Assembly: GCA_021779095.1 (NCBI GenBank)
Contig: JAJYBI010000004.1
Location: 47,784 to 111,783 of the forward strand
Length of the DNA stretch: 64,000 bases
Direction of reading: 5' to 3'
Source: Deltaproteobacteria bacterium
GTDB lineage: Bacteria; Desulfobacterota; Desulfuromonadia; Geobacterales; JAJYBI01
The stretch's first letter is position 1. Each line of letters starts with the position of its first letter. The position numbers and the translations under genes are program-made. The notes under the pieces were generated by a model. That model was not told the origin of the DNA. It did no database searches and saw only the letters and a program-made list of their open reading frames with translations. Shown piece by piece: positions 2 to 61,840 of the stretch.

Positions 2-2620
2 CTGGGGGGCTGCACCAATCTCTATTGCCACTCTCCCGGCGACCGGAACACCAGCACCTACAATGCGCCGAACCAGGCCGCCAACTGGGGTGGTTCCTCC
101 CTTGCCTGTAACGGCTGCCACAAGTATGACGTTGCCTCCGGCGATCCGATCGTGACCCCGGCGGCCGGCTTCGGCCATACCAAGCATGTGAACTCCACCA
201 TTACCACCAAGATCGCCTGCTACAAGTGTCACTCCGGTACAGTGAACAGCGCCGGCGTCATCATCAACAAGGCAAACCACGTCGATAACGTCAACAAGCA
301 GGTGACCATCAAGTTTGCCAATACCACGTCCGCCGCAGCCGGTCTCTACAAGGGACAGGCGGCGGCAACGGTCGCCTTCAAGACGGCGGCCGGTTCCTAC
401 GGTTCCTGTACGAATGTCTACTGTCACAGCGACGGTACGAAGGCGACGGCACCGTTCACCAACATGTCCACCCCTAAGTGGGGTTCCGCGCTGGCCGGCA
501 ACTGTGCCGGCTGTCACGGCGGCAACGGGACGACCGTGAAGAAGATGGCCACCGGTTCCCACACCAAGCATATTGCGGGCGGCGGCGCTGCCGGTTACAC
601 GCTGGGTTGTGTGGAGTGCCACAGTGCAACCGTCTCTAACGATACGACCATCTCAAACCCCGCCAACCACCTGAACTATGCGATCAACGTCGTACTGAAC
701 AGCGGCGGTACGTACAGTGCCAACGGGCATCAGCCCGGAGGGGCGGTCGGTACCTGTTCGGCCACCTTCTGTCATTCCAACGGGGCGGGTACCTATACGA
801 CCCCGACCTGGGGCAATGCCGCCACCGGCGCCTGCGGTAGCTGCCACGGCGTCGTGGCGGGCACGCCCCCGGCATCCGCCTCCCATACGAAGCACGTCGG
901 CACGGCTTACAACTACCTCTTCTCATGCGCCACCTGCCACGTACGGGTTGTCAAGAATACGACGAACTCCACAATCCAGGCGACCATGTCGTCGGCCAAG
1001 CTGCACATCACCGGTACCCACAGCGTGAATTTCAATACCGCCGTTACCCTGGCCGGTGCCTACACCACCGCCACCAAAACCTGTACGAACATCTACTGTC
1101 ATAGCAACGGTACGGTTACAGCCGGGTCGACTTTCACTGCCATCTCCACTGCGACCTGGGGCCGGTCGAACACCGCCGGTTGCGGCGGCTGCCACAGCTA
1201 TCCTCCGGCATACGCCAACGGCAGCCCCAAGGCGAACAGCCATGCCAAGCATGCGTCGTTCACCTGCAACAACTGCCACAACAACACGACCACCAACGGT
1301 ACCACCATCAGCAACACCGCAAACCATGTCAACAAGGTATACGACGTGGCTCCGGGGGGGACCACCACCTTCACGTTGAGCAATACCCCTGCCCCTGGCA
1401 CGCCGGCACAGTGCAGCAACATCAGCTGCCATGGTGGTACCGGCTCCAGCGCCACCTGGGGAGCTACTCTCAACTGTCAGGACTGCCATGGCAACGGTTC
1501 GACGGCGTCCTTCCTGACCTACAGCGCCAACTTCTGGAGCGGTACGACGCTCGCCAAGATCCAGATGACCGGTAGCGGCAGCTGGGCAACCAACGGACAC
1601 GGTCTGGCGTCAGGCACCTATCCGGGCACCAACAACCCTGCGGCGGCATTTACCGCCACCGCGGCTTGCGAATACTGTCACGATTCAACCGTCCTGCACA
1701 AGGATGGCACCAACCCGTTCCGTCTGCGCAACCAGGTCGATGCCATCTGGGGCAGGAACGGTGTCTGTCAGAGCTGCCACGCGGTCGGTTCCGCAGGGGT
1801 AACGGTTGGCGGCGTGCTCCGGAACGGTACCGTCAAGGTCGGCTCGACGCACCATGGCGCCAAGCACCTGACGGCAACCGCCGGTGGCCAGTACTGCTGG
1901 GACTGCCACAACGGCCATGGCGCCAACGGTACCAACCACGCCATGATCCGGACCGCCGTGGCGGTTACCAACGACGGCGTGTACGGCATTCCGCAGACCT
2001 TTGCCACTGTGGCCTTCACCCTGTCGGCGACACCGACCGGTACGGACTTCGTTCAGGCGACGAACGGTGCCTCGACGAAGATTTGTCAGGCCTGCCACAG
2101 CACGACCAACCACTATACGGCCACGACTTCCGACAGTCATAACATCACCTCGAACTGTATCGCCTGTCACAGCCACACCAACTCGAGTAATGTAAATGGC
2201 GCATTCGCACCTGCACAGTGCGACGCCTGCCATGGCTACCCGCCGATGCCGAGGAACGTTGCGGTGACCTTCGGCCGTATGAACAACTACACCAGCGCCA
2301 AGTTCGAGGATTACTCCGGCGGCGGCGGTGCCCACGCCACGGCGGCGCACGTGAAGCTGACCGCCAAGGCATCCGACGGATGGACCAACTGTACGCCGTG
2401 TCACTACAATCAGTCAGCGACGCACCAGATGATCACGCCGGTACGGACCCATGTGTCCAATATCAACGTGACCATCAATCCGAAGCTGCGTTTCAACAAC
2501 GTGACCTTCGGTAAGTACTCGGGTGCCAAGCTGGTCAACCCGTACGCCAACAAGACCGGCAGCTGCTACAGCGTTGCCTGTCACTTCAGTCCGTCTCCGA
2601 AGTGGAGCACCGAGAAATAG
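2..2620 (+). CDS. multihaem c-type cytochrome, 5'-truncated by window edge (Geobacter-type CX4CH...CXXCH repeat family)
   Basis: Frame 2 is open from nt 2. I count 22 haem-binding motifs in the translation: 16 CXXCH plus 6 CX4CH (CTNLYCH, CTNVYCH, CSATFCH, CTNIYCH, CSNISCH, CYSVACH). A module CX4CH..WG..CXXCH..HxKH..CXXCH..ANH recurs. A terminator follows. Confidence 0.9.
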   Translation: MGGCTNLYCHSPGDRNTSTYNAPNQAANWGGSSLACNGCHKYDVASGDPIVTPAAGFGHTKHVNSTITTKIACYKCHSGTVNSAGVIINKANHVDNVNKQVTIKFANTTSAAAGLYKGQAAATVAFKTAAGSYGSCTNVYCHSDGTKATAPFTNMSTPKWGSALAGNCAGCHGGNGTTVKKMATGSHTKHIAGGGAAGYTLGCVECHSATVSNDTTISNPANHLNYAINVVLNSGGTYSANGHQPGGAVGTCSATFCHSNGAGTYTTPTWGNAATGACGSCHGVVAGTPPASASHTKHVGTAYNYLFSCATCHVRVVKNTTNSTIQATMSSAKLHITGTHSVNFNTAVTLAGAYTTATKTCTNIYCHSNGTVTAGSTFTAISTATWGRSNTAGCGGCHSYPPAYANGSPKANSHAKHASFTCNNCHNNTTTNGTTISNTANHVNKVYDVAPGGTTTFTLSNTPAPGTPAQCSNISCHGGTGSSATWGATLNCQDCHGNGSTASFLTYSANFWSGTTLAKIQMTGSGSWATNGHGLASGTYPGTNNPAAAFTATAACEYCHDSTVLHKDGTNPFRLRNQVDAIWGRNGVCQSCHAVGSAGVTVGGVLRNGTVKVGSTHHGAKHLTATAGGQYCWDCHNGHGANGTNHAMIRTAVAVTNDGVYGIPQTFATVAFTLSATPTGTDFVQATNGASTKICQACHSTTNHYTATTSDSHNITSNCIACHSHTNSSNVNGAFAPAQCDACHGYPPMPRNVAVTFGRMNNYTSAKFEDYSGGGGAHATAAHVKLTAKASDGWTNCTPCHYNQSATHQMITPVRTHVSNINVTINPKLRFNNVTFGKYSGAKLVNPYANKTGSCYSVACHFSPSPKWSTEK

Positions 2621-9284: not shown

Positions 9285-11429
9285 TCATGTCAGGGGGGGG
9301 CAGCCGTTCTCTTCCATCCTTCTGTCCGGCAGCTCGCGGCTGACCGGAAGCACCACCGTGAACTGTGAACCTTTGCCGGGGCTGCTCGCAAGGCTGATCT
9401 CGCCGCCGTGGCGCTTGACGATGGTGTACGAGATGGCCAGGCCGAGGCCGAGCCCCTTGCCGGCATCCTTTGTCGTGAAGAACGGGTCCCATATCTGGTC
9501 GATGATGTCCGGCGCGATGCCGCACCCCGTATCGCTGACCCGGATGGATATCTCCCGGTTGTCATCTGAATGTTCCGTGCAGATCTTCACCGTACCACCC
9601 CCGTCGATCGCCTGGTGGGCGTTGATGAGCAGATTCATGAGCACCTGCCTGAGCCCCGACGGATCACCGTGGATCGACGGCAGGGTCTCCTTCAGGTCGG
9701 TGACGACCTCGATCCGCTCCTCGCTTGACTGGTGTCTCAACAGTTCGAGGATCTCCCGAATGATCTCGTTGATGTCCACGTTGTACACGAAGCCGGTCGA
9801 CTTCCTGCCGAAATTGAGGAGGCTGTCGATAATCCCCTTGCAGTGGTACGACTCACGGACGATGACGTTGAGATACTTGGGGAATACTTTCAGCCGGTCA
9901 TCCTGTGCCAGTTTTTCATCGTCGCGAAACCTGCGCAGCAGCGCTTCGGCGTAACCGGCCACCGAGGTGAGGGGGTTGTTGATCTCGTGGGCCACCCCCG
10001 TCGCCAGCACCCCGATGCTCGACATCTTGTCCGACTGGATCAGCTGCAGCTCCTGGAACCGTTTTTGCGTAACATCACGAAGGACGACGAGCGCACGGTT
10101 CTTTTCCCCCAACGCGTCTTCGATCGGTGTCGCCGTAATGTCGATGTACCGGATCTTGTGCCCGTCCCGCACCGAGACGAGGGACGTTTCCACCCGCGAG
10201 CCGCGCAGGGCGCGCTCCACGGCACAGTGCTCCGTGCCGGTTGGGGTCTCCGGGTGAAGCAGGTCCTGGCAGGTCTTTCCCGGCAGCGATTCATGGGGAA
10301 GCAGTTGGAGCGAGGTGTTGTTGTAATGCTGTACCCGTCCGTCATGGTCGAAGACGATCACCCCGTCGTTGACCGAGTCGAAGATGGCCTGCAGTTCGTT
10401 TTTCTGGCTGCGCAGTTCAACTTCGGCCTGTTTGCGTTCGGTGATGTCCTGGGTGGTGCCATACAGTCTCACCACCTTGCCCGAGGCATCCACCGACGGC
10501 TCGACCGTCGTGTAGACCCATTTGAAGGTGCCGTCCTTCAGCAGCAGGCGGTGTTCGATCTCGTAGTTCTTCCCCTCCTCCGTGGCCACGCGCAGATGCC
10601 CCATGACGGACTGGAAATCCTCCGGATGAATCACGTCGGCAAACGCCTCCTGCGATACCTCGTTGCGGCCGAGGTGCAGAATGCGCAGCATCTCGTCGGA
10701 TACGATCAGTTCGCCGGTCTGGGGGTTCGACCGCCAGGAGCCCACGTGGGTCATGGTCTGGGCTTTTGCCAGATTGTATTCGCTTTCCCGTAACGCCTCG
10801 TCGGCCTGCTTTCGCTCGGTGATGTCGATCAGGGCGACATGGCATTCGTCTCCCGTTGCGGTTGCCATCGCTTCGATGCGGACAAAGTGAGGTGGGGCAT
10901 CGTTTGAGAGCCGCAGCCGGCAGGTGTGTTTTTCGCGGTGCGCAAACACGGTGGCCAGAAACAGGGTGAACGTGGGACGGTCTTCCCGGGCAATGAACGT
11001 TTCGAAACGTTTGTGAACGAGTTCGGCCCGGTCCGTGAGGAGCATGTTGCCCCCCGTCAGATTTGCCGTGCGGACTTTTCCGCTTCTGTCGAGCGTGAAA
11101 CAACCGACCGGCGCGAAATCGTAGAGAAGGGCGTAGGCGTTCCTCGATGCAAGAAGCTCTTCATTGGAGCGCTGCACCGATTCCAGCAGTCGTTCCAGTT
11201 CGGTAAGGCGGGGACTGCTGTCCCGGCGGGAATGGGGTGGCGGTTGATCGGTATCGTCGTGACCTGTGCCGTTCGCGCCGACGGAATGTCCCGTTGCCCG
11301 GCCGTGCAGTTCGGTAGCGTTGTCAGACCTGTTCATTTGCATACTCATGGATGTGCTGCATCTGTCGTGATGTTGTGATCGTATCTGGCAGGGACTGGTA
11401 TCCACCGGACTGCCGTCATCCCGTAACAT
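9285..11429 (-). CDS. multi-PAS sensor histidine kinase
   Basis: Several PAS/PAC-like repeats are followed by the HisKA H-box GVAHEINNPLT and HATPase_c N/G boxes (LINAHQA, DTGCGI, GKGLGLGL). The start is uncertain: candidates are TTG 11504, ATG 11429 and ATG 11348. Confidence 0.85.
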   Translation of the reverse strand: MLRDDGSPVDTSPCQIRSQHHDRCSTSMSMQMNRSDNATELHGRATGHSVGANGTGHDDTDQPPPHSRRDSSPRLTELERLLESVQRSNEELLASRNAYALLYDFAPVGCFTLDRSGKVRTANLTGGNMLLTDRAELVHKRFETFIAREDRPTFTLFLATVFAHREKHTCRLRLSNDAPPHFVRIEAMATATGDECHVALIDITERKQADEALRESEYNLAKAQTMTHVGSWRSNPQTGELIVSDEMLRILHLGRNEVSQEAFADVIHPEDFQSVMGHLRVATEEGKNYEIEHRLLLKDGTFKWVYTTVEPSVDASGKVVRLYGTTQDITERKQAEVELRSQKNELQAIFDSVNDGVIVFDHDGRVQHYNNTSLQLLPHESLPGKTCQDLLHPETPTGTEHCAVERALRGSRVETSLVSVRDGHKIRYIDITATPIEDALGEKNRALVVLRDVTQKRFQELQLIQSDKMSSIGVLATGVAHEINNPLTSVAGYAEALLRRFRDDEKLAQDDRLKVFPKYLNVIVRESYHCKGIIDSLLNFGRKSTGFVYNVDINEIIREILELLRHQSSEERIEVVTDLKETLPSIHGDPSGLRQVLMNLLINAHQAIDGGGTVKICTEHSDDNREISIRVSDTGCGIAPDIIDQIWDPFFTTKDAGKGLGLGLAISYTIVKRHGGEISLASSPGKGSQFTVVLPVSRELPDRRMEENGCPPLT

Positions 11430-11585
11430 GGTTATGTCGCGGGAACTTCCGTTTGGTAGCCTTATAATGAGACGATGAGCACGAAGATTAGAAGTGTATA
11501 CCAACTGAATTTCGAATGCAATTCTGATATTTATGAATTCCGGCGGCCGAGATGTATTCGGTTCGATCGGTGTACTCGTGGGGGC

Positions 11586-12659
11586 TCAGCGATCGGTGCG
11601 TGCCCGCGTGCCGACCCGGTCGCCGGCTTTTTGGGAATTGCCCTGGAATACGATCTCGACCCGGAACGTACAGTCAAGGGTGGCGGGATATCTGCCGTTG
11701 TTGTCCCGGGGCCAGGCGATCTCGGGTTCCAGTTCGTAGAAAAGCCATGGACGCAGGAAATTGCTGCGGTATCGGACAAGAAACCGGTAGTTGTCTGCCA
11801 GCGCGGGGAAGGTCGTGTTGCCGTAAACTCCGCCTGTCAGGGTGACGGCGCTGTTTTCTCCAATCTCCTTGATCAAGGAAAGTTCCGAACCCCATTCGAG
11901 ACCGCGTATCTCTTCCGAGGCGGTGCCGGCGCTTGCCCAACGGAGGATGGTCTTCTTGTCCAGTTGCTGTTCGATGTTGATCTCAGTCGTCTCGCCAAAC
12001 AGATCCGTATTCTTGACGAAGAGCGTTTCTGCGGTCCGCATGAGCGACGTATCGCTGAAGTTATGGGTGTACTGAAACCTGCTGCGCACGAACGCCTCAA
12101 ACGGCAGGTTGAGCCGCACTCCGGCACCGAGAAACATGTTCAAGCAGGGTTTTCGGATCAGATCGTACCTGAGTTCGGTGTTGGCAAAATGGGCAGCCGG
12201 CGTGGTGCGGTCGAACCCTGGATTCCCCGGGTCCTGGGGAAGGGCCTGAGTGAAGGGGGCGGGCTCGTCTTCTCCCGCAATGACGAGACGCAACCGTTCG
12301 CTGATGCGCGACAGGACGAAGTGGGCACGGACGCTGGTGCCGTAGGCGATGCTGCCGCCATCTTCCAGACGGAAGGAATTCCGCCAGCGGAGTTCGTAAC
12401 CGGTCTGGCGCAGTCCCTCCGATCTGACATCGCCGAAGAAATTGTCCAGCCGGACGGTCTGGTCGAGTATGTCCTGCTGAATCCGCTCGTGGGCCGCGTC
12501 CATGGATTGTTCAAACGCGGCGGCGTACGTCGTTTCAGTCTTTGGTGGCGTCGCAGATACATCGCCGGCATATGCGCTGCCGGCCAGTGCTGGCAGCAGC
12601 AGGTGCGCGGTCAGGAGCAGTGTCCGGACGTCTTGTCCCGATAAGATTCCTGGGGACAT
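11586..12659 (-). CDS. putative outer-membrane beta-barrel protein (hypothetical)
   Basis: Signal peptide LLLTAHLLLPALAGSAYA, alternating beta-strand-like pattern, and aromatic-rich C-terminal strands. Divergent from mlaA. Confidence 0.6.
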   Translation of the reverse strand: MSPGILSGQDVRTLLLTAHLLLPALAGSAYAGDVSATPPKTETTYAAAFEQSMDAAHERIQQDILDQTVRLDNFFGDVRSEGLRQTGYELRWRNSFRLEDGGSIAYGTSVRAHFVLSRISERLRLVIAGEDEPAPFTQALPQDPGNPGFDRTTPAAHFANTELRYDLIRKPCLNMFLGAGVRLNLPFEAFVRSRFQYTHNFSDTSLMRTAETLFVKNTDLFGETTEINIEQQLDKKTILRWASAGTASEEIRGLEWGSELSLIKEIGENSAVTLTGGVYGNTTFPALADNYRFLVRYRSNFLRPWLFYELEPEIAWPRDNNGRYPATLDCTFRVEIVFQGNSQKAGDRVGTRARTDR

Positions 12660-12853
12660 CGTTTCCTCCGGTTACCGTTATTGAAGACTGCGTTCCGGGG
12701 TGGCTGCGCGGTAATCGGTATGCATGCGTAACAGAAACTTCGGATGGATCTGGTATAATATTCATTAAGTCTAGGGGGTCCGGTACGTATTGCAAGTGAA
12801 AATACCGGGTGTGTACTCCCTGTCGGTTTATTAATAAATTGGAATTTACGGCA

Positions 12854-12883
12854 TTGACAAGAAAGCCGATTCAAGGGTATACC
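12854..12883 (+). promoter_or_regulatory. candidate sigma-70 promoter for mlaA
   Basis: TTGACA at 12854-12859 and TATACC at 12878-12883 (18-nt spacer), in an AT-rich divergent intergenic region. Confidence 0.35.
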
Positions 12884-12923
12884 TCCAGTTTGATGTGCGA
12901 TTTGCCATGTTCAGGAGTTTCAG

Positions 12924-13961
12924 ATGATGACCAGAAGGACTGTGGTAGCGCTGTTTGTGATGATGCTGATGCCGTTGTCGGTCCAGGCAGGGGTGACGGA
13001 GACGGCAACGGTGGCCGGTACGGAGAGGGCGGCCGTATCCGTTTCCAGCACCGGTGTCCAGGGAGTCAAGGTTCAGCCGGCGGTTGCCGATGCCAACGTC
13101 GATCGGCAGAAACAGGTCGTGGCAGATACGGAAGGCGTAAAGTCTGCCCCTGTGGAGGCGGCTAAGCTTTCCCGTGTCGGACGATCCGACGATGCAGTAC
13201 CCGGTGCGACCACTTCTGCTGCGACGGATCGTACCGTGTTTGCCCAGGCGGGTGAGGGGGGGATACCGTCGACTCCCGCAGGTGAAGGGCTTAATAAGCC
13301 GGAGACCTCCCACGACGAGGCAACGGCCAACGAGTATCCGGCGGAAGAGGAGGCGCCGAAGATCTCCGATCCGTTGGAGCCGTGGAACCGTGCGATGTTC
13401 ACCTTCAACGACAAGCTGTATTTCTGGGTGCTGAAACCGGTCGCCCAAGGGTACAACTATGTGGCTCCGCAGCCGGTGCGGGTTGCGATGAGGAACCTGT
13501 TCTCCAATGCCGCCGCCCCGGTCCGGTTCGTCAACGCGCTCCTGCAGCTCAAGTTTCGCGTTGCCGGAACGGAGCTCGCCCGGTTCGGACTGAACACGAC
13601 GTTCGGCCTGGCCGGTCTGTTCGATGTGGCGGAAGACCAGTTCAATCTATACGGACAGAACGAGGACCTGGGGCAGACGCTCGGCTCGTACGGGGTCGGC
13701 TCCGGCGTCTATATCGTCTGGCCGGTCTTTGGTCCCTCGTCCCTCCGCGATACCGTTGGTCTTGTGGGGGACGGCTTCCTCAATCCCCTCAACTACATCA
13801 GTCCTACGGCTGCGATGTTCGGGGTACGTTCCTATGAGACGGTCAACAAGACGTCCCTTTCCATCGGCGAATACGAGGATCTGAAGGCGGCGGCGGTGGA
13901 TCCGTATGTTTCGGTGCGTGATGCCTATGTGCAGCACCGGAACTACCTGATCAAGGAATAG
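12924..13961 (+). CDS. mlaA: MlaA/VacJ-family lipoprotein
   Basis: Contains DPLEPWNRAMFTFNDKLYFWVLKPVAQGY..NLFSN..RFGLNTTFGLAGLFDVA..DLGQTLG..YIVWPVFGPSSLRD, the MlaA core. It has a long acidic/Ala-rich N-terminal linker. Confidence 0.9.
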   Translation: MMTRRTVVALFVMMLMPLSVQAGVTETATVAGTERAAVSVSSTGVQGVKVQPAVADANVDRQKQVVADTEGVKSAPVEAAKLSRVGRSDDAVPGATTSAATDRTVFAQAGEGGIPSTPAGEGLNKPETSHDEATANEYPAEEEAPKISDPLEPWNRAMFTFNDKLYFWVLKPVAQGYNYVAPQPVRVAMRNLFSNAAAPVRFVNALLQLKFRVAGTELARFGLNTTFGLAGLFDVAEDQFNLYGQNEDLGQTLGSYGVGSGVYIVWPVFGPSSLRDTVGLVGDGFLNPLNYISPTAAMFGVRSYETVNKTSLSIGEYEDLKAAAVDPYVSVRDAYVQHRNYLIKE

Positions 13962-39476: not shown

Positions 39477-42400
39477 TTCCTGTCTTTCTCCCCGGGGACG
39501 AGGGGAATCTCGCGCGTTTGGCTGCAGGAAGAGATGGGCCGCGCTCGCCGTCGACGGTTTTCATGCATGCGTGTGAAGGCAGACTTCGTCGACAGGGTTC
39601 CGTCATGGGCAAGCCGTTTCTGCGCCAGGGCGTACGTGGAGATGGCCGGGATCTCGTTGTCCTCCGGTACCACCTTGCGGTACGCCTCCATGGCCGCCCC
39701 CGTTTCCCCGTACTGTTCGGCGATCCGTCCCAGCACGTACCAGTGCCGCGACCGGGGTTCATGGTTCTGGGATACCTCCAGCGCCTTGAGTATCGTCTCG
39801 CGGGCCTCCGCGAGCATCCCTGCCTCCGCATACAGTGCGGCCAGCGTATGCAGGGAGCTCTCATTCCTGCCGCCGGAGAGGGCGACGGCCTGCTCCGCGA
39901 TCGACAGCGCCTCGGGAGAGACCGTCGGGCTGAAGAGGTCCAGCCAGGCCAGGTTGTTGTATTCGCCGGCCGTCCCCTTTCCCGTATCCACGATCGTCTG
40001 GTACAGCTCCCGTGCCCGTTTGATATCCCCTTTCTGCTCGGCGCACAGGGCGAGCATCCCGAGCGCGGCCGGGTCCTTCGGCATCGTGGTGAGCCGCTGC
40101 CGTGCCGCGGCGGCGACGTCGTCCCAGCGGTTCATGGCGCGCAGGGCATAGGTGTAGCCCATGAAGGCCATGGCGGAATCCGGATAGCTCTTTTTCAGCC
40201 GTTCGCTGATCTTCAGGAGTTCCGGGTATCGCTTCTCCTCGGCATAGGCCCGGGTCAGGGCGATGTCGATGGCCGTAGCGAGCGCCCCTCCGGCGGAGTC
40301 CCTCCCCTCTTGCAGGATCGGTACCGCCTTCTCGTACCCCATCCGGGAGAGCAGGCAGGCCGCGGCGATCTGCATCCGTTCCGGAGTGTCCGGGGCCGTC
40401 TGTCCCCATATCCGCAGGAACGGCTGTCCCGAGAGCGGGTCGTCGTCCTGCGTGCGCGGGATCTCCTCGCGCGCCCAGTCGAGCCAGGTCCTGGCACCGG
40501 CCAGATCCCCCGACGCGATTCGGTCGAGGACCACCAGCCCGATGGGGGCCAGGTTGTCGCTGCCGGTCACGAGCCGGTAGCGTCCCGCCTCTTTCACCAC
40601 ATAGACCCGCATCTTCTCCTGCCCGAGCAGGGCCGGGCTGGTGGCGTCGATCCGGTATCCCACGGCGTCGTTCCCCTCGGTCCGGAACTGCAGGGCGCTG
40701 AACGCGATGTCGGTCACCGCCTCCCGCGGGGGATCACCCGCCCCCTTCATGACATTCCCCATGATGGCATCGAGATTCCGGAGATCCTCGTCGGCCCCGT
40801 CCTTTTCCGCCTCCTCGCGGATGGTGCGGGCGAACAGCGACAGGAACGTATCCGGGGCGGATTCGGGAACGAAGAGGGACAGGAACATCCGTTTCACCAC
40901 GGTCGTCGGCTCCCCTTCCGGGAGGGGGAGCCGTTCGAACGGTCTCATCCCTTTCAGGATGGTGACCCGCCTCCGAAGCGCCGCCGTGTTCGGCGCACCT
41001 GAGGCCGCTTCCTCCAGCAGTCCGGCCGCTTCCTCGTAGTGACGGACGGTGACCAGACTGGAGACCACCGACTCCAGTGCCTGCCTGCGGCTGGCGATAT
41101 CCGGTATGAGCCGGCGTGCCTCTTCAAGGGCGGCGGGAGCCCCCTTTTCACCCGCGATGGCGAGGATGAGGTAGAGGGGACCGTTGTCGGTCCCCTGGAG
41201 AGAACGCGCCGTCTCTTCCAGCTCCTGCCACCGTTGCGCCCGGTACAGGCAGACGAGGAGGTTCTTGTCGAGGTCGTCCCGTTTCAGGTCGGTCCTGATG
41301 CCCCGGTATTCGGCGATGGCACCCGCCAGGTCGGCGTGCCGGCCATACCGCTCGCCGTCGTCGCCGTATTCGAGGAGGATCGCCAGATCGCCACGGGCGA
41401 CGAAGTCGGTGGGGTCCAGCTCCTTCGCCCTGCGGTACTCAGCCACTGCCCGTTTCCGGTCGATCCCCTTCGCCAGCCGTCTCCCGATCTCGTCGTGCTG
41501 GAGTATCCAGGCGGCCGTCCGATGCGCCAGGGCCGACCTCGGTTCGAGGGCGATGGCGCGGTCGGCCTCCCTGAGGGCCGCATCGCGAAGCCCCATCGCG
41601 AGGAGGGTGTCGGCGATCTGCAGGTGGTGCAACGCCTCGCCGGGGTGCAGCGCGGCAAGCCGGCGGAACTCGGCGAGCGCCCCGGTGAATTTGCCTGCGG
41701 CGAGGAGCGCCCGCCCCACCTGCTCGAAACGGATGAGCACCGACTTTTCGTTCTTGAGATCCCTGAGGGCCGCCTTTACCGCCTCGAACTCTTCCGGGGA
41801 GAGGCGTCGCCTGCCGGTATCGAACCGCAGGAGTGCCGAGACGACGCCGTCCTTTCCGATGGTGAAGCTCCGTGAGAGCGTCATCGGCCCGAGATGGACG
41901 GTCTTCGCCTCCGGTACCGTTCTCGCCCTGAACCCCGGCGGCGGCACGATGCGGTACCGCATCTCGTAGCGGTACGGCTCCGGGAGGAGGTAGTCGTGCG
42001 TCCGTGTCTCCCCCCGGTCCTTTCCGTCGCCGGTCAGCTCGGCGGGGAGCCGTTCCGTCAGGGAGGACGGGAAGATCGCCACCACCGCTTCGTCGTCGTC
42101 GGTCGAGCCCCGCGCGGCCCCTTCCATCTCCAGGCGGATCGTGAACGGTTCATCGACCTTCCCCGGGTCGGAGACCTCCATCGCCGTGAGCTTGTCCGCC
42201 AGGTACGCGGTGCGTGCGTATTTTTCCAGCGTCTGGCGGATCGCCTGCCGATCGGTGGTCGCGTATTCCCCGCGGAACGACGACCCGATGGAGCCGTACA
42301 TCTGCGAGCTCTCGATCACCCGCGCCTTCCCCTTTTCCGCGAGGTGGAACTCCCTCGTCTCCACCTGGAGGTTGTCGCCGGACGGCGCCTCCGGCGTGAC

Positions 42401-55606: not shown

Positions 55607-58600
55607 TCATTCCCCCATCGCCGTCGCGGCGATCTCCTTGATCCCCTTCAGGTCCAGCTTGCCACTGCCGAGGATCGGCAGGCTCTCCACCTCCACGTAG
55701 CAGTCGCGGCACGGCTTCCAGAGGTTGGGAAGGTCGCTCTCGGCCATGTGGCGCCGCAGGGTCTCCATGTCCGTCGCCTCACGGGCGTACAGCACCACCA
55801 GCTGCTCCCCCCGCTTCTCGTCCGGTACGGCGGTGACCGCCACGACTCCGGTCTGGCCGAGCCGCGCGTGCAGCTCGTCCTCCAGTGCGCCGTGGGGGAC
55901 CATCTCGCCGGCGATCTTGCTGAAGCGGGAGAGCCGGTCCGTGAGCCGCAAGAACCCGTCGTCGTCCAGGGTGCCGATGTCGCCGGTGACGTACCAGCCG
56001 TCCCGGAGCACCTCGGAGGTCTTGTCCGGGCGCCCCAGGTAGCCGAGCATGACGTTCGGCCCCTTCACGAGGACGAGGCCGGCCGTGCCGTTGGGGAGCT
56101 TCTTGCCCGTATCCGGGGCCACCACCTTTAGGACCACGCCAGGAAGCGGATGGCCGACGCTCCCCTCCCTGGAGCCGCGCTGCAGGACGCCGTCTATCTC
56201 CACGTCCGGGAGCGACAGGGTGCAGACGGGGGAGAGCTCGGTGGCGCCGTACCCCTCGTAGGGGCGGATGCCGAACTTCTCCAGGAAGGCGTCGGCGACC
56301 CGCGGTTTCAGCTTCTCCGCCCCGGTGATGACGAGCCTTAAGGAAGCGAAGTCCTCCTTCTTTGCCCGCCGCAGGTAGGAGAGGAGGAAGGTGGGGGTGG
56401 CGATGAGGATGGAGGAGCGTTCCTCGTTTACTATCCGGGCGATGGTCTCGCCGTCCAGGGGATTCGGGTGATAGGCGACGGAAAAGCCGGAGGTGAGCGG
56501 AAGCCAGAGGGTGCCGGTAAAGCCGAGAGAGTGGAAGAGCGGCAGGGCGGAGCAGATGTTGTCCGCCGGTCCCACCCGCATCACCATCCGCATCCCCTCC
56601 AGGTTGGACTGGACGTTGTGGTGGGAGAGCATCACCCCCTTGGGCTCGCCGGTGCTCCCCGAGGAGAAGATGACCGTGGCGACCTTGTCCGGGTCGAAAC
56701 CGGCGCTCTCCACGAGCATCCGACGCGGGAGGAAGCGGGCCCGCAGGTGCGCAGACAGTTTCTGACGGTCCGAAATCTCCGCCATGATCTCCTCCAGGAA
56801 CACCATACCTTCCAGCTCCGGCAGGGACTCGAGCTTCTCCAGAAACGCGCGGGAGGTGACGATGGTCCGGATGCCGCACTGGGCCACGGCGGAACGGATG
56901 CCGTCGGGGGAGGCGGTGTAGTTCAGGTTTACCGGCACCCGGCCGAGCATGGTGAGGGCGCAGTTGGCCAGCACGCCGCCGGCCGACGGCGGCAGGAGGA
57001 GCCCCACAAAGGCTTCCCCCTCCCTCGATGGGAGGGGGCCAGGGGGAGGGAGAAGGTGCGAACTGTTTCCTTCGTTCCGGCCTCCCCCCCACCCCGACCC
57101 TCCCCCTCCGGGGGGGAGGGGGCGTTCGAGTACTTTCGCCAGTTTCTCCTTCATGAGCAGCGCCCCGGTGAGCGCCTCGCCGTAGGTGAGCCGTTTCCCC
57201 CCTGTATCGGAGAGGGCGTGGCGGCGCCAGTTGCCACGGGCCGCGTCCACGAAGAGCGGCGCGAGAGATTTGCGCCGCTCCTTGCGGGCGTCGAACCAGG
57301 CGCAGAAGAGTTCCATCACCGCCTGGCGCACCTCCACAGGGGAGCTCTCCGTGGGGAGCGGCGCGCCGAAGATGATGGTCACCGGGTAGGGGAACCGGAC
57401 CGGCAGGCGGGAGACGAGCCGGCCGTGGGCGTAGGAGAAGATGCTCCCCCAGGCGCCGCCGATGCAGACCGGGATGAGCGGGTAGTCGCTTCCCTTCACG
57501 ATCCGCTCGAATCCTCCCTTGAACTCGCCCAGCATGCCGCTGCGGGTGATGGCCCCCTCGGCGAAGATGCAGACCAGATAACCGTCGTCCAGCGCCGCCC
57601 GGGCGGTGGCGATGAACTCCACGAGCCCCTTGCGGCCGTCCTTCGCCGAGACGGGGATGACCTGCATGAGCCGGCAGAGCCGCTTCAGAACCGGCGTGTT
57701 GTAGATGTCCCGGTCCATGACGAAGCGGATCCGCCGCTGCTGGGTGGCGATGAGGAGCAGCGCATCCATCCACGATACGTGGTTGGCGATGAGGAGCGCC
57801 GGCCCTTCGCTCGGGACATACCGCTCGTCCACGATGGTGAGCCGGTAGCAGCACCGCATGACCACGAGCGCCACGAAGCGCAGGAGAAAGTCGGGGAGGA
57901 CCCGGAGGGTGATGATAGTGAGGACCAGGGTGACGGCGGCAAGCACCGAGAAGGAGCCGCCGGGGGAGACCGCCAGCGGGCCGGACAGGAGCCACAGAAG
58001 CCCCGAGGCGAGGAGCACCCCGACCCAGCTCAAGAACGTCGAGGCGGCCAGGATCTCGCCGCGTCGGTCGGCGGGGCTCTTCAACTGGATAAACGCCTGG
58101 AGCGGGACGATGAAGAGGCCGGCGCTGCCGCCGAACAGAAAGACGATGGCGAGCACCAGCGGGACGCTGGGGGGGACGGCATGGAGCACGAAGGCGCTGA
58201 CCGTGAGGCCGGCGGCGCCGATGGGGACCACGCCGAACTCCACGGTCCGCCCCGAGAGCCTGCCGGCCAGCATCGAGCCGAGGCCGATCCCGAGGGCGGC
58301 GGCGAGGAACAGGTAGCCGCTCTCCTCCTGGGGAAGGCCGAGCCGGTCCATGCCGTAGGGAAGGAGGTTCAACTGGCAGAAGGCCCCCACGAAGAGGAAG
58401 TATGCCGCCCCCAGCACGGCGAGCAGCAGTTCCCGGTCTTTCCGGAGTTCCCGCAGGGTTCGGAAGTAGGAGGCCGGCGACAGCGCCAGGGGACGGCGGT
58501 GGTCGGGGACGGGGGTGATGGGGATGGCGCGGGCGAGCAAAAGGCCGGCCACGGCGACGGCGATGCCGGCCGCGGCGGCCAGGCCGTACCGCCCGTGACT

Positions 58601-59098
58601 CGCCCGGACGAGGAACGGCGCCAGGGCGGTGCCGCAGATGATCGCCATGAAGGAGCACATCTCAAGATTGCTGTTGGCCCGGGAGAGCTCCTCGCGCTCC
58701 ACGAGCTCCGGCACGACGCCGTACTTGGCCGGGGCGAGGAGCGTGCTGTGGGTGCCCAGCAGGAAGACCGCCAGGTAGAGGAGCGGCGAGGTGCCGAGGA
58801 CCAGGCCGGCGCAGGCGACGAGCGCGATGCCGATCTCCAGGCACTTCACCCCGACGACGATCCGCTGCTTGGGATACCGGTCCGCCAGGGAGCCGGCGAG
58901 GGCGGAGAAGAGAAGAAACGGGGTGACGAAGGCGGCGCTGCCGATGGCGGCGATGGTGCCTGCCGCGGCCGGCCCCTGCCGGCCAATGAGGAAGAAGACG
59001 ACGATCAGCTTGATCAGGTTGTCGTTCAGCGCCCCCAGCGCCTGGGCGAGGTTGAGCCGGGCGAAGGAGCGGGGGAGGGTGGTCGTGGTGGTATCCAT
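55607..59098 (-). CDS. aas: trifunctional LplT-PlsC-Aas-type protein: MFS lysophospholipid transporter + acyltransferase + acyl-ACP synthetase (AMP-binding)
   Basis: N-terminal 12-TM MFS region. Acyltransferase H(X)4D reads NHVSWMDA. The AMP-binding motifs are FSSGSTGEPKGV, GYGATE and TGD. Confidence 0.85.
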   Translation of the reverse strand: MDTTTTTLPRSFARLNLAQALGALNDNLIKLIVVFFLIGRQGPAAAGTIAAIGSAAFVTPFLLFSALAGSLADRYPKQRIVVGVKCLEIGIALVACAGLVLGTSPLLYLAVFLLGTHSTLLAPAKYGVVPELVEREELSRANSNLEMCSFMAIICGTALAPFLVRASHGRYGLAAAAGIAVAVAGLLLARAIPITPVPDHRRPLALSPASYFRTLRELRKDRELLLAVLGAAYFLFVGAFCQLNLLPYGMDRLGLPQEESGYLFLAAALGIGLGSMLAGRLSGRTVEFGVVPIGAAGLTVSAFVLHAVPPSVPLVLAIVFLFGGSAGLFIVPLQAFIQLKSPADRRGEILAASTFLSWVGVLLASGLLWLLSGPLAVSPGGSFSVLAAVTLVLTIITLRVLPDFLLRFVALVVMRCCYRLTIVDERYVPSEGPALLIANHVSWMDALLLIATQQRRIRFVMDRDIYNTPVLKRLCRLMQVIPVSAKDGRKGLVEFIATARAALDDGYLVCIFAEGAITRSGMLGEFKGGFERIVKGSDYPLIPVCIGGAWGSIFSYAHGRLVSRLPVRFPYPVTIIFGAPLPTESSPVEVRQAVMELFCAWFDARKERRKSLAPLFVDAARGNWRRHALSDTGGKRLTYGEALTGALLMKEKLAKVLERPLPPGGGGSGWGGGRNEGNSSHLLPPPGPLPSREGEAFVGLLLPPSAGGVLANCALTMLGRVPVNLNYTASPDGIRSAVAQCGIRTIVTSRAFLEKLESLPELEGMVFLEEIMAEISDRQKLSAHLRARFLPRRMLVESAGFDPDKVATVIFSSGSTGEPKGVMLSHHNVQSNLEGMRMVMRVGPADNICSALPLFHSLGFTGTLWLPLTSGFSVAYHPNPLDGETIARIVNEERSSILIATPTFLLSYLRRAKKEDFASLRLVITGAEKLKPRVADAFLEKFGIRPYEGYGATELSPVCTLSLPDVEIDGVLQRGSREGSVGHPLPGVVLKVVAPDTGKKLPNGTAGLVLVKGPNVMLGYLGRPDKTSEVLRDGWYVTGDIGTLDDDGFLRLTDRLSRFSKIAGEMVPHGALEDELHARLGQTGVVAVTAVPDEKRGEQLVVLYAREATDMETLRRHMAESDLPNLWKPCRDCYVEVESLPILGSGKLDLKGIKEIAATAMGE
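57014..57124. repeat. GC-rich double-hairpin REP-like element embedded in frame in the aas linker
   Basis: The hairpins are CCCCCTCCC-TCGAT-GGGAGGGGG (57016-57038) and CCCTCCCCCTCC-GGG-GGGGAGGGGG (57098-57122). The element translates on the minus strand as low-complexity PLPPGGGGSGWGGGRNEGNSSHLLPPPGPLPSRE. Confidence 0.55.
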
Positions 59099-59137: not shown

Positions 59138-60316
59138 TTACGGCATACCTGCGGTTTCGCTCCCCTTCGAGGGGAGGGGTATTGGTGGCAGGTGCAGCAG
59201 TCTCCCGCCGTTCCCCAGTATCTCTTCCGTCACCCCCAGCGCCCGCTTCAGCTCCACGTCCCGGTCCCAGGGGTTGACTATGGCCGCCAGGCGGCGGGCC
59301 TCGGCGAACGGCACCCGGCCGAGCTGGAACCAGGGAGAGGTGAGCCCCGTGGCGATGAGCGGCATGTCGCTGCCGTACAAAAGGCGCTTGTGGAGCTCCG
59401 TGTGACGCAGGACCCGTTGCAGGTGCCCGAGCCGGTTCGCTTGGGTCAGGGCGGAGATGTCGGCGTACAGGTTCGGGTAGGAGGCGAGGAGCGGCAGCAA
59501 CCGCTCCAGGTTGCGCTGCCCACCGTTTCGGCCGTTGCTGGCGCAGTGGGCGGCGATGACCGTCACCCCCTCATCCAGCGCGGTGCGCAGCCTAAGCGGG
59601 TCGGCGAGGCTGTTGTCGGTGCGGGTGAACGACTCCTCGTTGCCGGTGTGGGTGAGGAGCGGGAGCCCCAGCTCGTGCAGGCGACGGTAGAACGGTACGA
59701 GCCGCCTGTCCGCCGGATCGAACCCCTGGATGGAGGGGAGCCACTTCAGAAGCAGTGCACCGTCCGCAGCGGCTTCGTCGAGTCGATCGAGGGCGTCCGG
59801 CCGGAGCGGGTTCACGCTGGCGCCGAAGAGCAGGTTCGGCAGGCGCCGGCACTCCCGCGCCAGGAACCGGTTGGGGATGTAGAGCTCCGTGCGTCCCTCG
59901 TCCAGCGCCCCACGCCCGTCCACGACGCCGTCCATGGCGAGCAGCACCGCCGCCGCGACCTGCCGGGATTCACCGACCCGTCCCGACAGCCGCTCGGTTA
60001 CGAGGCCGTCCCCCTGTCGGAGGATCTCACCTTCAGTGACGCCGAACGCCCTGAGGAACCAGCGGTAGCGGTAGTTGCGGCGCAAGCTCGGCGAAACGAA
60101 GCAGCCGCTCCCCCCGGCGCCGATGCCGGCGGTGTGGCAGTGCAGGTCGATGATGGTGGAGGCATCTTTCACGGGTACGGCTCCTTCGGTTTCGTTGGCG
60201 ACCGGGATGCCGGCCGATGCCGCTTCCATTTCAGGGAGCGTGCCCAGATCGTCCATAGATGATAACAGGCCGGAATCGCGTGGCAAATGCGCTGTGATGG
60301 GGTGGCAATATATCAT
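59138..60316 (-). CDS. amidohydrolase-superfamily metal-dependent hydrolase
   Basis: Contains IIDLHCHTAG (HxH) and a late YGSDMP motif. The start is uncertain (60316, 60256 or 60229). The last codons run into a CTCCCC-TTCGA-GGGGAG hairpin. Confidence 0.7.
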   Translation of the reverse strand: MIYCHPITAHLPRDSGLLSSMDDLGTLPEMEAASAGIPVANETEGAVPVKDASTIIDLHCHTAGIGAGGSGCFVSPSLRRNYRYRWFLRAFGVTEGEILRQGDGLVTERLSGRVGESRQVAAAVLLAMDGVVDGRGALDEGRTELYIPNRFLARECRRLPNLLFGASVNPLRPDALDRLDEAAADGALLLKWLPSIQGFDPADRRLVPFYRRLHELGLPLLTHTGNEESFTRTDNSLADPLRLRTALDEGVTVIAAHCASNGRNGGQRNLERLLPLLASYPNLYADISALTQANRLGHLQRVLRHTELHKRLLYGSDMPLIATGLTSPWFQLGRVPFAEARRLAAIVNPWDRDVELKRALGVTEEILGNGGRLLHLPPIPLPSKGSETAGMP

Positions 60317-60331
60317 TACCGTATCCGGGGC

Positions 60332-60359
60332 TTGACAATTTATGCATGACGGCTATACA
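60332..60359 (+). promoter_or_regulatory. candidate sigma-70 promoter of the sigma-54 activator gene (would give a near-leaderless mRNA)
   Basis: TTGACA (60332-60337), a 16-nt spacer, then TATACA (60354-60359). The ATG lies 9 nt later at 60368. Confidence 0.4.
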
Positions 60360-60367
60360 TGTGATGC

Positions 60368-61840
60368 ATGAAACGTACAGCGCGCACCATCGACGATGAA
60401 TGGAGCTTTTTCGAGACGGTGGCCCGCGCCGCCTTCGCCAACCCCTTCGGGGCGACCCGGGACGAGCTGGACATGGCCATCGGCGGCACCGGCCCCGACG
60501 CCTCGCCGGAGGAGGTCCTGTCCGCCATGATCGACCGGGTCCGGGAGCGGGTGACGGCGATGCAGCGGGCCGACCGGGCAGACCTGCGCCGCTTTGATGG
60601 GGGGCGGCGGGAGACCCTGCAGACCGTCCTCCTCTTCCACCTGTTCCACCGGTATGCGGAGCCGTTCGACCGGCTCATCCGGGATCAGCTCGACGCCGGC
60701 GACACCCCCTGCCGGGTCCCCTGGGCCCGGAACGTGCTGGAGGAGCTTTCCCGGTTCGGTTTTCCCGAGGACGACGCCGTACGTTTCTTCGCCATCTTCT
60801 ACCAGCTGCGTCGTGCCTTCTACTTCATCAAGCACGGGCTCGTGGGGAGCTCCCCCTCCATGCGAAACCTGCGCCGGCACCTGTGGGACTGCGTCTTCAC
60901 CCACGACATCCGCTGGTTCGAGGCGCGGTTCTGGAACCGGATGGAGGAGTTCTCCCTGCTGCTCCTGGGGGAGACCGGCACCGGCAAGGGAGCGGCGGCC
61001 GCGGCGGTGGGGCGCTCCGGGTTCATCCCCTTCGACCCGGTGCGCAGCGCCTTCACGGAGAGCTTCACCCGCAACTTCGTCGCCATCAACCTCTCCCAGT
61101 TCTCCGCGGGTCTGCTGGAATCGGAGCTGTTCGGGCACCGGAAGGGGGCCTTCACCGGGGCGGTGGACCACCACGAGGGGATCTTCAGCCGCTGCGCCCC
61201 CCACGGGGTGATCTTTCTCGACGAGATCGGCGACGTGAGCGTGCCGGTGCAGATCAAGCTCCTGCAGGTACTGCAGGAGCGGATCTTCTTTCCCGTGGGG
61301 AGCCACGAGCCGAAGCGGTTCAGCGGCCGGGTCATCGCCGCCACCAACCGCTCCCTGAACGAACTCTGCCGGACCGGCGGGTTCCGCGACGACCTGTACT
61401 ACCGGCTCTGCTCCGACGAGATCACCATTCCCCCCCTGCGCCAGCGGTTGAAGGAGGACCCGGCGGAACTGGGGTACCTCCTGGACAGCATCCTGTCACG
61501 TCTGGCGGGGGCGGTCTCTCCCCGGGAGCGGCAGCTCGTGACAAAGGTGCTGGAACGGGAGCCGGGGCGCGACTACCCCTGGCCGGGGAACGTGCGGGAG
61601 CTGGAGCAGGCGGTGAAACGGATCATCCTCACCGGCCACTACCGGGGGCGGGCCGCCGATCGCCCGGAAGAGGACGAGGCCGGCCGGCTCGCCGCGGAGA
61701 TCGGGGCGGGGACGGTGGCTGCGGAGACCCTCCTCACGCGCTACTGCGGTATTCTGTACCGGCAGCACGGCACCTACGAGGAGGTTGCCCGCCGGACGAG
61801 GCTCGACCGGCGTACGGTGAAGAAGTACGTCCACCGGTGA
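60368..61840 (+). CDS. sigma-54-dependent transcriptional activator (bEBP) without receiver domain
   Basis: AAA+ core with GETGTGKG, the GAFTGA loop (KGAFTGAV) and the R-finger region. C-terminal Fis-type [22 protein letters not shown]. The ~190-aa N-terminal domain has no recognisable family. Confidence 0.9.

Follow-up and report, generated by a model that had tools for sequence, protein, structure and literature searches.

A palindromic repeat of the Geobacteraceae, probably captured in frame by an aas gene at a loop where insertions recur

The unnamed "palindromic sequences" of Geobacter bemidjiensis are listed in 52 copies as Gbem_R2001-R2052 (Aklujkar et al. 2010, BMC Genomics 11:490, Table S6; PMC2996986). 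Their published consensus is KYYCCCCCTCCCCTTGACGGGAGGGGGYYRGGGGGTGGGKGAAGSYGCCA...TGGCRSCTTCMCCCCACCCCYRCCCCCTCCCGTCAAGGGGAGGGGGRRM, and a sub-family of solo right halves is listed as well (PMC2996986). They are the closest described system to the subject of this article, an element located in an aas gene on contig JAJYBI010000004.1 of a metagenome-assembled genome (MAG; assembly GCA_021779095.1). A 64,000-nucleotide (nt) stretch of this contig was analyzed and is called the window throughout. Other multicopy sequences that lie inside genes are known from further Geobacter families, namely Gbem_R11xx of G. bemidjiensis and a different family in G. metallireducens (PMC2700814). Rickettsia palindromic elements (RPEs) measure ~100-150 bp and often lie in frame in unrelated protein-coding genes, to which they add a peptide segment (review PMC10969869). 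REPINs are inverted doublets of repetitive extragenic palindromic (REP) sequences that are mobilized by RAYT transposases and are described as extragenic (Bertels & Rainey 2011, PMC3116915). For the REP classes of Di Nocera et al. 2013 (PMC3733652), a palindrome with a terminal GTAG or CGTC tag on one side is reported.

Compared with Gbem_R20xx, the window copy has the same architecture and matches the IUPAC consensus at 38/50 and 41/50 positions. However, all 52 copies of G. bemidjiensis are listed between genes, whereas the window copy lies in frame inside a coding sequence and belongs to an uncultured relative of Geobacter sp. AOG1. Positions 57016-57120 of the window are very probably one copy of a multicopy, non-coding palindromic family of the Geobacteraceae that was captured in frame into aas, where it replaced a native loop.

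The element and its dispersed family

The gene and the element comprise the following features.
55607..59098, minus strand: host open reading frame (ORF) aas, intact, 3492 nt, 1163 residues, from the list of open reading frames and its translation
57016..57120, minus strand: element core of 105 nt, consisting of hairpin, G-rich tail, spacer, C-rich tail', and hairpin; encodes residues ~660-693
57098..57120, minus strand: first hairpin, in coding orientation CCCTCCCCC-CCGGA-GGGGGAGGG, 9 bp, perfect, from the inverted-repeat search and folds
57016..57038, minus strand: second hairpin, in coding orientation CCCCCTCCC-ATCGA-GGGAGGGGG, 9 bp, perfect, from the inverted-repeat search and folds
57041..57099, minus strand: imperfect central stem of the G-rich tail GGGTCGGGGTGGGGGGGAGG and the C-rich tail' CCTTCTCCCTCCCCCT around a 24-nt spacer, from inverted repeats and minimum-free-energy folds

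The two hairpins had been called near-perfect in a preliminary description of this DNA, and both are in fact perfect over 9 bp with loops of 5 nt. Read on the forward strand, arms 57016-57024/57030-57038 form CCCCCTCCC-TCGAT-GGGAGGGGG and arms 57098-57106/57112-57120 form CCCTCCCCC-TCCGG-GGGGGAGGG. The imperfect central stem is an addition to that description; it pairs 57041-57056 with 57081-57099 and thereby joins the two hairpins into a three-stem fold. As RNA, the element folds with an energy of -83 kcal/mol (z = -2.1 versus shuffles), and the z-score as DNA is -2.6. The pattern CCCCTCC-N3-9-GGAGGGG occurs twice in the 64 kb, compared with 0.02 occurrences expected from shuffles. A G-quadruplex motif fits the G-rich tail and the adjoining hairpin arm by regular-expression match, and such motifs are present on both strands of the element. 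When positions 56700-57500 were compared with Rfam under a permissive threshold, only sub-threshold matches to microRNA hairpins came up, the best with 27.8 bits against a gathering score of 88.

In the translation, the insert comprises residues 660-693 (nt 57020-57121) with the peptide PLPPGGGGSGWGGGRNEGNSSHLLPPPGPLPSRE (PLPP...SRE), so that the in-frame, low-complexity translation described earlier is exact. The G+C content of the window around the insertion site is ~65-70%. No stop codon is found in any of the six frames of the window copy, and a typical copy of the family is open in 2/6. The reading frame survived because the element spans 35 codons, is rich in G+C, and in this copy contains no stop in any frame.

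The plan common to the family is [C-run/G-run hairpin + G-rich tail] - spacer - [C-rich tail' + hairpin], with a length of ~103-105 nt. Species-representative genomes were scanned for the hairpin-tail junction, a pattern that is common to many phyla. Among the matches listed, full copies outside aas are found in two intergenic places on different contigs of one Geobacteraceae MAG (L034 and L060) and in two further places of a Desulfuromonadales MAG (L017 and L073). A scan of metagenomes for the right-hand module gave at least 120 loci, with at least 58 full copies that are mostly intergenic and for which 103 and 105 nt are the most frequent lengths; roughly half of the 120 contigs among the matches listed come from one metagenome sample. 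Solo right-half derivatives are also present. Many of these contigs break within the element, as would be anticipated for a high-copy repeat. The aas copies resemble copies at unrelated loci about as closely as they resemble one another. Aligning 31 copies (the window copy and 30 others) yields a consensus three-helix fold, with compensatory changes at two pairs of the first hairpin in one sub-family. The earlier idea of a dispersed palindromic element that landed in frame in aas therefore holds, since this ~105-nt element recurs in Geobacteraceae and Desulfuromonadales at numerous unrelated sites, most of them intergenic, and agrees with a published consensus.

Several observations concern the extent of the repeat unit. 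In five metagenome loci (L129, L135, L137, L153, and L225), the 105-nt core is contained in a longer unit that has the outer inverted repeats TTGCAAAA ... TTTTGCAA, and in sample Ga0209212 ~25 nt are conserved on both sides of the core. The mobile unit may be larger than the core found in aas. At L149, L186, L187, and L214, contigs break in element copies with long poly-G/poly-C runs, which are probably sequencing or assembly artefacts and call for caution in copy counts. A module consisting of C-rich arm, loop, and GGGGGAGGG followed by the tail TYRGGGTGGGGGG occurs in more than 119 species genomes among the matches listed, often as inverted doublets; the groups include Alphaproteobacteria, Planctomycetota, Chloroflexota, Dormibacterota, Desulfobacterota, and Nitrospirota, and the G-rich strand of this widespread module is a textbook G-quadruplex motif. 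Its distribution may reflect common descent, horizontal spread, or convergence.

A census of proteins by means of the peptide proved unworkable. A phmmer search with a 40-residue peptide against 1.8 billion representatives gave six matches, and a word-index search with a 10-peptide profile gave 17 candidates and two matches, both searches being defeated by the low-complexity sequence. In-frame copies are found in other proteins. At L073, the copy is located within an MmeI-family ORF of 753 codons, whose methyltransferase domain is split into two Pfam stretches, and is read as SLPPGGGGLGWGG...PSRQGKG. The radical-SAM protein fragment P0125 holds NPLPLGGGGLGWGG...HPPPNPLPSREGE. A copy in the opposite orientation directly follows the ketosynthase domain of a polyketide synthase-type protein (L247), half-modules lie within a FabA-domain protein (L235), and a copy in a different frame lies in a 789-residue ORF (L147). 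About three convincing in-frame cases are counted among 123 metagenome sites; hence, the family is mainly intergenic. As far as the literature searched goes, the in-frame coding copies described here, that of the window included, are the first of this family of which we are aware.

Gain in one lineage and position in the enzyme fold

Pfam assigns MFS_1 to residues 21-364 of the host protein, Acyltransferase to 420-546, and AMP-binding to 697-1021. A homologue search with this protein gave 988 homologues, the nearest being annotated as acyl-[ACP]--phospholipid O-acyltransferase in Geobacter. Judged by these domains, the host gene is an LplT-Aas fusion of an LplT-like MFS transporter, an acyltransferase, and an acyl-ACP (acyl carrier protein) synthetase domain, and it codes for an enzyme of lipid recycling. 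The query keeps every column that is invariant across 115 orthologues. Assembly artefacts had been named as a point to be checked, and a G/C-rich repeat might be wrongly assembled or sequenced. Metagenome contigs do often break within copies, some of them ending in poly-G runs; however, the same 1163-residue protein is encoded, residue for residue, on eight contigs, the three displayed being from two ENA assemblies and one NCBI assembly, with the longest measuring 257 kb. Moreover, the frame is kept and homologous inserts occur in other assemblies, which leaves an artefact only a negligible chance.

The best 120 of the 988 homologues were aligned, and a neighbor-joining tree, the only kind of tree computed, was built with the loop masked. 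The three closest orthologues (P0002-P0004, 75-76% identical by BLASTP) lack the insert, as an alignment suggested in the preliminary description was meant to reveal, and have a loop of 11 residues in its place. This short loop is found in 68/120 aligned orthologues, these three included. In the tree, P0002-P0004 form the sister group of the query (P0001), and the outgroup that follows, P0007, likewise has no insert; hence, the insert was gained in the lineage of the query itself.

Two orthologues at a greater distance (P0032 and P0035, 65% identical) contain a near-identical peptide of the same length at the same loop position. Such same-length segments in distant orthologues had been regarded beforehand as speaking against an inserted element, and they are what would be expected if the ancestral enzyme had already possessed the segment as a linker and most relatives had since lost it. 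They exist, but the objection drawn from them fails. In the two other aas genes (L004 and L005), the insert DNA is 82-85% identical to the window copy, whereas the 300-nt flanks are 63-71% identical. Taken together with the tree and the copies elsewhere, this excess of insert identity indicates a repeated occupation of the loop rather than an ancestral linker. In addition, both major clades and every one of the nearest relatives show the 11-residue loop, the same DNA occurs in intergenic regions and unrelated genes, and many precise losses would be needed. We thus regard an ancestral linker as highly improbable.

The 20-residue windows beside the query insert are 73-75% identical to the insert-less sister, and the left one is 73% identical to the sister versus 40% to P0032. 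A long recombination tract from a P0032-like filled allele was considered and rejected, as the query flanks resemble the sister and not P0032.

The preliminary description had placed the insert in a linker N-terminal of the AMP-binding domain. This location has to be corrected. For P0003, a sister without the insert, Pfam matches AMP-binding over residues 621-989 and profile positions 3-384, whereas the query match begins at residue 697, which corresponds to profile position 48. From this late start it follows that the insert splits the domain ~45 profile positions in. An AlphaFold2 model of the whole protein, computed from a 115-sequence alignment, has a mean predicted local distance difference test score (pLDDT) of 81.3. 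Herein, residues 663-693 have a pLDDT below 50 and no secondary structure, and they are positioned between a helix (639-658) and a strand (697-701). Alignments to solved adenylate-forming enzymes of the PDB that cover the N-terminal subdomain resume directly past the insert. The insert is therefore predicted by the model to be a disordered, Pro/Gly-rich surface loop of 34 residues. For annotation, this is a warning, as the Pfam AMP-binding match is cut short by the insert, and where a predicted protein contains a low-complexity peptide of this type, the peptide is often a translated repeat.

The surroundings of the gene are conserved. At all aas loci fetched (L001-L005, L125-L128, and L249-L251), the order is a divergent sigma-54 activator, an Amidohydro_2 protein, and aas (window 59138-61840). 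Past aas, the window contains a Fic-domain gene, a MazE-like gene, and a second Fic gene. Two palindromes of the window that had been taken for relatives of the element, at 2631-2652 and 59160-59176, do exist, but they are short and stand alone, and a blastn-short search with the element matches only the element itself. The first of them, GGAGGGGGCATATGCCCCCTCC, begins 11 nt past the stop of the ORF 152..2620 (plus strand) and precedes a terminator-like hairpin that ends in a T-run motif (CGGCCGGGCCTTGCGCCCGGCCTTTTTTT), so that two 3'-end structures are stacked within 2631-2693. The palindrome at 59160 falls in the last codons of the upstream amidohydrolase ORF. Another short palindrome, GGCTCCCCTTCCGGGAGGGGGAGCC, is found at 40908-40932, and the 9-mer GGGAGGGGG occurs 10 times in the window versus 2.6 times expected.

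A loop in which insertions recur

Within the alignment of 120 homologues, this loop is the sole internal position with insertions of at least 8 residues. It is longer than 13 residues in 49/120 orthologues and measures at least 26 residues in 25/120. At least four kinds of insert are distinguished.
Type A: the present family, in the window, P0032, and P0035
Type B: SPFEKGGFRGIS...QIPPxPPLxKGG
Type C: LPPLQGEGRGGDG...THPPPHLP
Type D: LLVETSRWDVSDAP...

The DNA of types A, B, and C follows a common plan of hairpin, tail, spacer, tail', and hairpin with different sequences. Type D, from the aas loop of L127 (gene 10001-13480), consists of two other hairpins, GAGACGTCCC-GAT-GGGACGTCTC and AGACGCGCC-AGC-GGCGCGTCT, and, after these, a 3' remnant of type A (CACCCCCTGGCCCCCT), a make-up that points to a nested or replacing event. 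Inserts are also lost in part. P0054 and P0055 contain the type-A insert minus 84 nt, in frame, the deletion lying between direct repeats that are formed by the 5' hairpin arms, and short scars such as KQIPPGPPLSKGG are kept in many orthologues. In the tree, type A appears in three places that lie apart from one another, and type B sits amid sequences that have no insert. Most likely, the recurrent occupation reflects a selective filter, the loop being the only part of Aas that tolerates an insertion; since a change in length is tolerated nowhere else in the protein, no hits but those in this loop would survive.

A closely related pair allows both junctions to be read. P0009, which is filled with type B (L249:5480-5620), and P0022, which is empty (L250), are ~98% identical right up to both junctions. 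Herein, 21 native nt (PVTAGQE) are replaced by 99 nt with no target-site duplication, as seen in this one pair from a different family. Further type-B copies were sought in the flanks of L249 and L126 and none was found; elsewhere, there are only two (L139 and L191). The junctions of the window copy are unreadable against its sister, which at 76% identity is too diverged. As proposed here, the copy would have entered aas in the lineage of this MAG and would have replaced the short loop that links the first helix to the following strand in the N-terminal subdomain of the AMP-binding domain, and the insert would be translated as a 34-residue loop that the enzyme tolerates. The replacement without duplication in P0009/P0022 points to template switching or repair-mediated capture, and by the same pattern the window copy may have arrived in this manner rather than by classical cut-and-paste transposition.

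A different route would be a horizontal transfer followed by homologous recombination or gene conversion, through which loop and repeat spread from one aas allele to another; the three type-A inserts would then have one origin. The native loop of the filled/empty pair is indeed replaced, not cleanly interrupted, and the residues before the element are alike in the three type-A proteins (KVLER / KILANN / TLLSNN) and unlike the DDLIA of the sister. Codon position, orientation, and reading frame are the same in all three inserts, too; yet a shared frame in three events is unsurprising given that a typical copy is open in two of six frames. No donor tract is visible in the left 20 residues, for which the sister is the closer match, and the flanks of P0009/P0022 agree up to both junctions. 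Moreover, the aas copies are about as similar to copies at unrelated loci as they are among themselves. We consider this spread between alleles unlikely, although it keeps a real share of the probability.

The loop could also be a targeted landing site. The following native feature lies next to the insert.
56975..56993, minus strand: native palindrome GCCGCCG-TCGGC-CGGCGGC, encodes the conserved PPSAGG, ~25 nt downstream of the insert

The motif LLPPS(A/V)GG of the AMP-binding domain is encoded by a C-run/G-run palindrome in the window, L125, L128, L249, and L250, since Pro and Gly codons are complementary. The insert-less sister reads TTCCCCCCTCGGCGGGGGGAG at the motif, compared with CTCCCCCCTGGCGGGGGAGGG for the element hairpin, and the two are near-identical in some orthologues. 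The motif palindrome might be mistaken by the mobilization machinery for the end of a repeat, or it might stall replication and thereby favor the capture of hairpin repeats by template switching. A C/G-run hairpin lies within 60 nt in 3/102 flanks of 51 full copies versus 2/782 control windows (odds ratio ~12, p = 0.013). This signal is weak, and most copies have no such neighbor; insertion beside hairpins is therefore kept as speculation, and a targeted loop is given a small chance only. If it were true, G+C-rich genes would in general hold decoy integration sites in the form of their Pro/Gly codon palindromes, and these would steer where proteins gain loops.

The preliminary description had further spoken of exaptation, which is not borne out, as the evidence is one of tolerance as a predicted disordered loop. 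An exapted insert would serve as a flexible loop of Aas or as a nucleic-acid signal, in which an mRNA or DNA structure or a G-quadruplex pauses ribosomes, stabilizes the transcript, or attenuates transcription. The very stable RNA fold and the G-quadruplex motifs on both strands would suit such a signal, the element is conserved above its coding flanks, and the loop is occupied in the 49 orthologues mentioned above. However, most orthologues, including the nearest, work with 11 residues, unrelated repeat families stand in for one another, inserts decay to scars as by the 84-nt in-frame deletion in P0054, and AlphaFold2 gives the insert no structure. The higher conservation of the element is the expectation for young repeat copies. 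No sign of a function is thus seen in the insert, and exaptation appears improbable, although the motifs and the fold predicted from the sequence may leave room for an effect on translation or transcription.

The capture of a dispersed repeat copy, as favored here, has points against it as well. A blastn-short search with the element in the 64-kb window and the 23-kb locus L001 found no second copy, so that the copies anticipated from a BLASTN search are absent from the window and present, dispersed, in the DNA of relatives; the multicopy status in the source genome is read from these relatives. The way in which the element moves is deduced from the junctions of the filled/empty pair. Neutrality of the insert is an assumption, translation through it is a prediction, and the identical site, orientation, and frame in three lineages are compatible with loop transfer between aas alleles. 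With regard to mobilization, four of the 52 G. bemidjiensis copies (R2005, R2008, R2019, and R2043) adjoin genes for a "transposase of ISGbem_A", and R2004 lies directly 5' of the aas homologue of that species (PMC2996986). The insertion sequence ISGbem_A may target these palindromes or supply the mobilizing enzyme.

Comparison with known palindromic repeats

The likeness to RPEs is one of functional analogy, and a relationship in sequence is not to be expected. RPEs are A+T-rich and reside in the reduced genomes of Rickettsia, whereas the window family consists of G/C runs, is mostly intergenic, and is hosted by Geobacteraceae. REPINs and the window family are alike in that two inverted short palindromes enclose a spacer, a longer hairpin is possible, and the units are multicopy, mostly extragenic, and also found solo. 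A RAYT gene was not found, although no search aimed at one was made. The window copy contains no GTAG, CTAC, CGTC, or GACG, the tags by which it was compared with REPINs and REPs; in other copies of the family, CGTC sits in the hairpin loop and not at the foot. The terminal inverted repeats seen in miniature inverted-repeat transposable elements are matched by the family, as its two hairpin-plus-tail modules are inverted copies. Gbem_R11xx is a different sequence family (consensus RGGGGACTGGCTCCGCMAGGTGCCTGTCCCCCTT), and no recurrent hot spot in a single loop is reported for the other in-gene families of Geobacter.

The locus would be a clean and datable case of a selfish palindromic repeat that lengthens an essential-looking enzyme domain by ~35 residues yet does not destroy it. 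Its host is free-living and G+C-rich, unlike the reduced Rickettsia genomes in which the phenomenon is best known. Across the Geobacteraceae, the one Aas loop appears to record a full life cycle comprising insertion, replacement, nesting, and in-frame decay to Pro/Gly scars. It thus offers a natural system for asking whether insertions are targeted or only filtered by selection, and how disordered protein loops originate. In comparison with the described systems, in-frame palindromic insertion is known from RPEs and other Geobacter families, and the present family is known from its catalogue entry in G. bemidjiensis; what is new is the loop as a recurrent hot spot.

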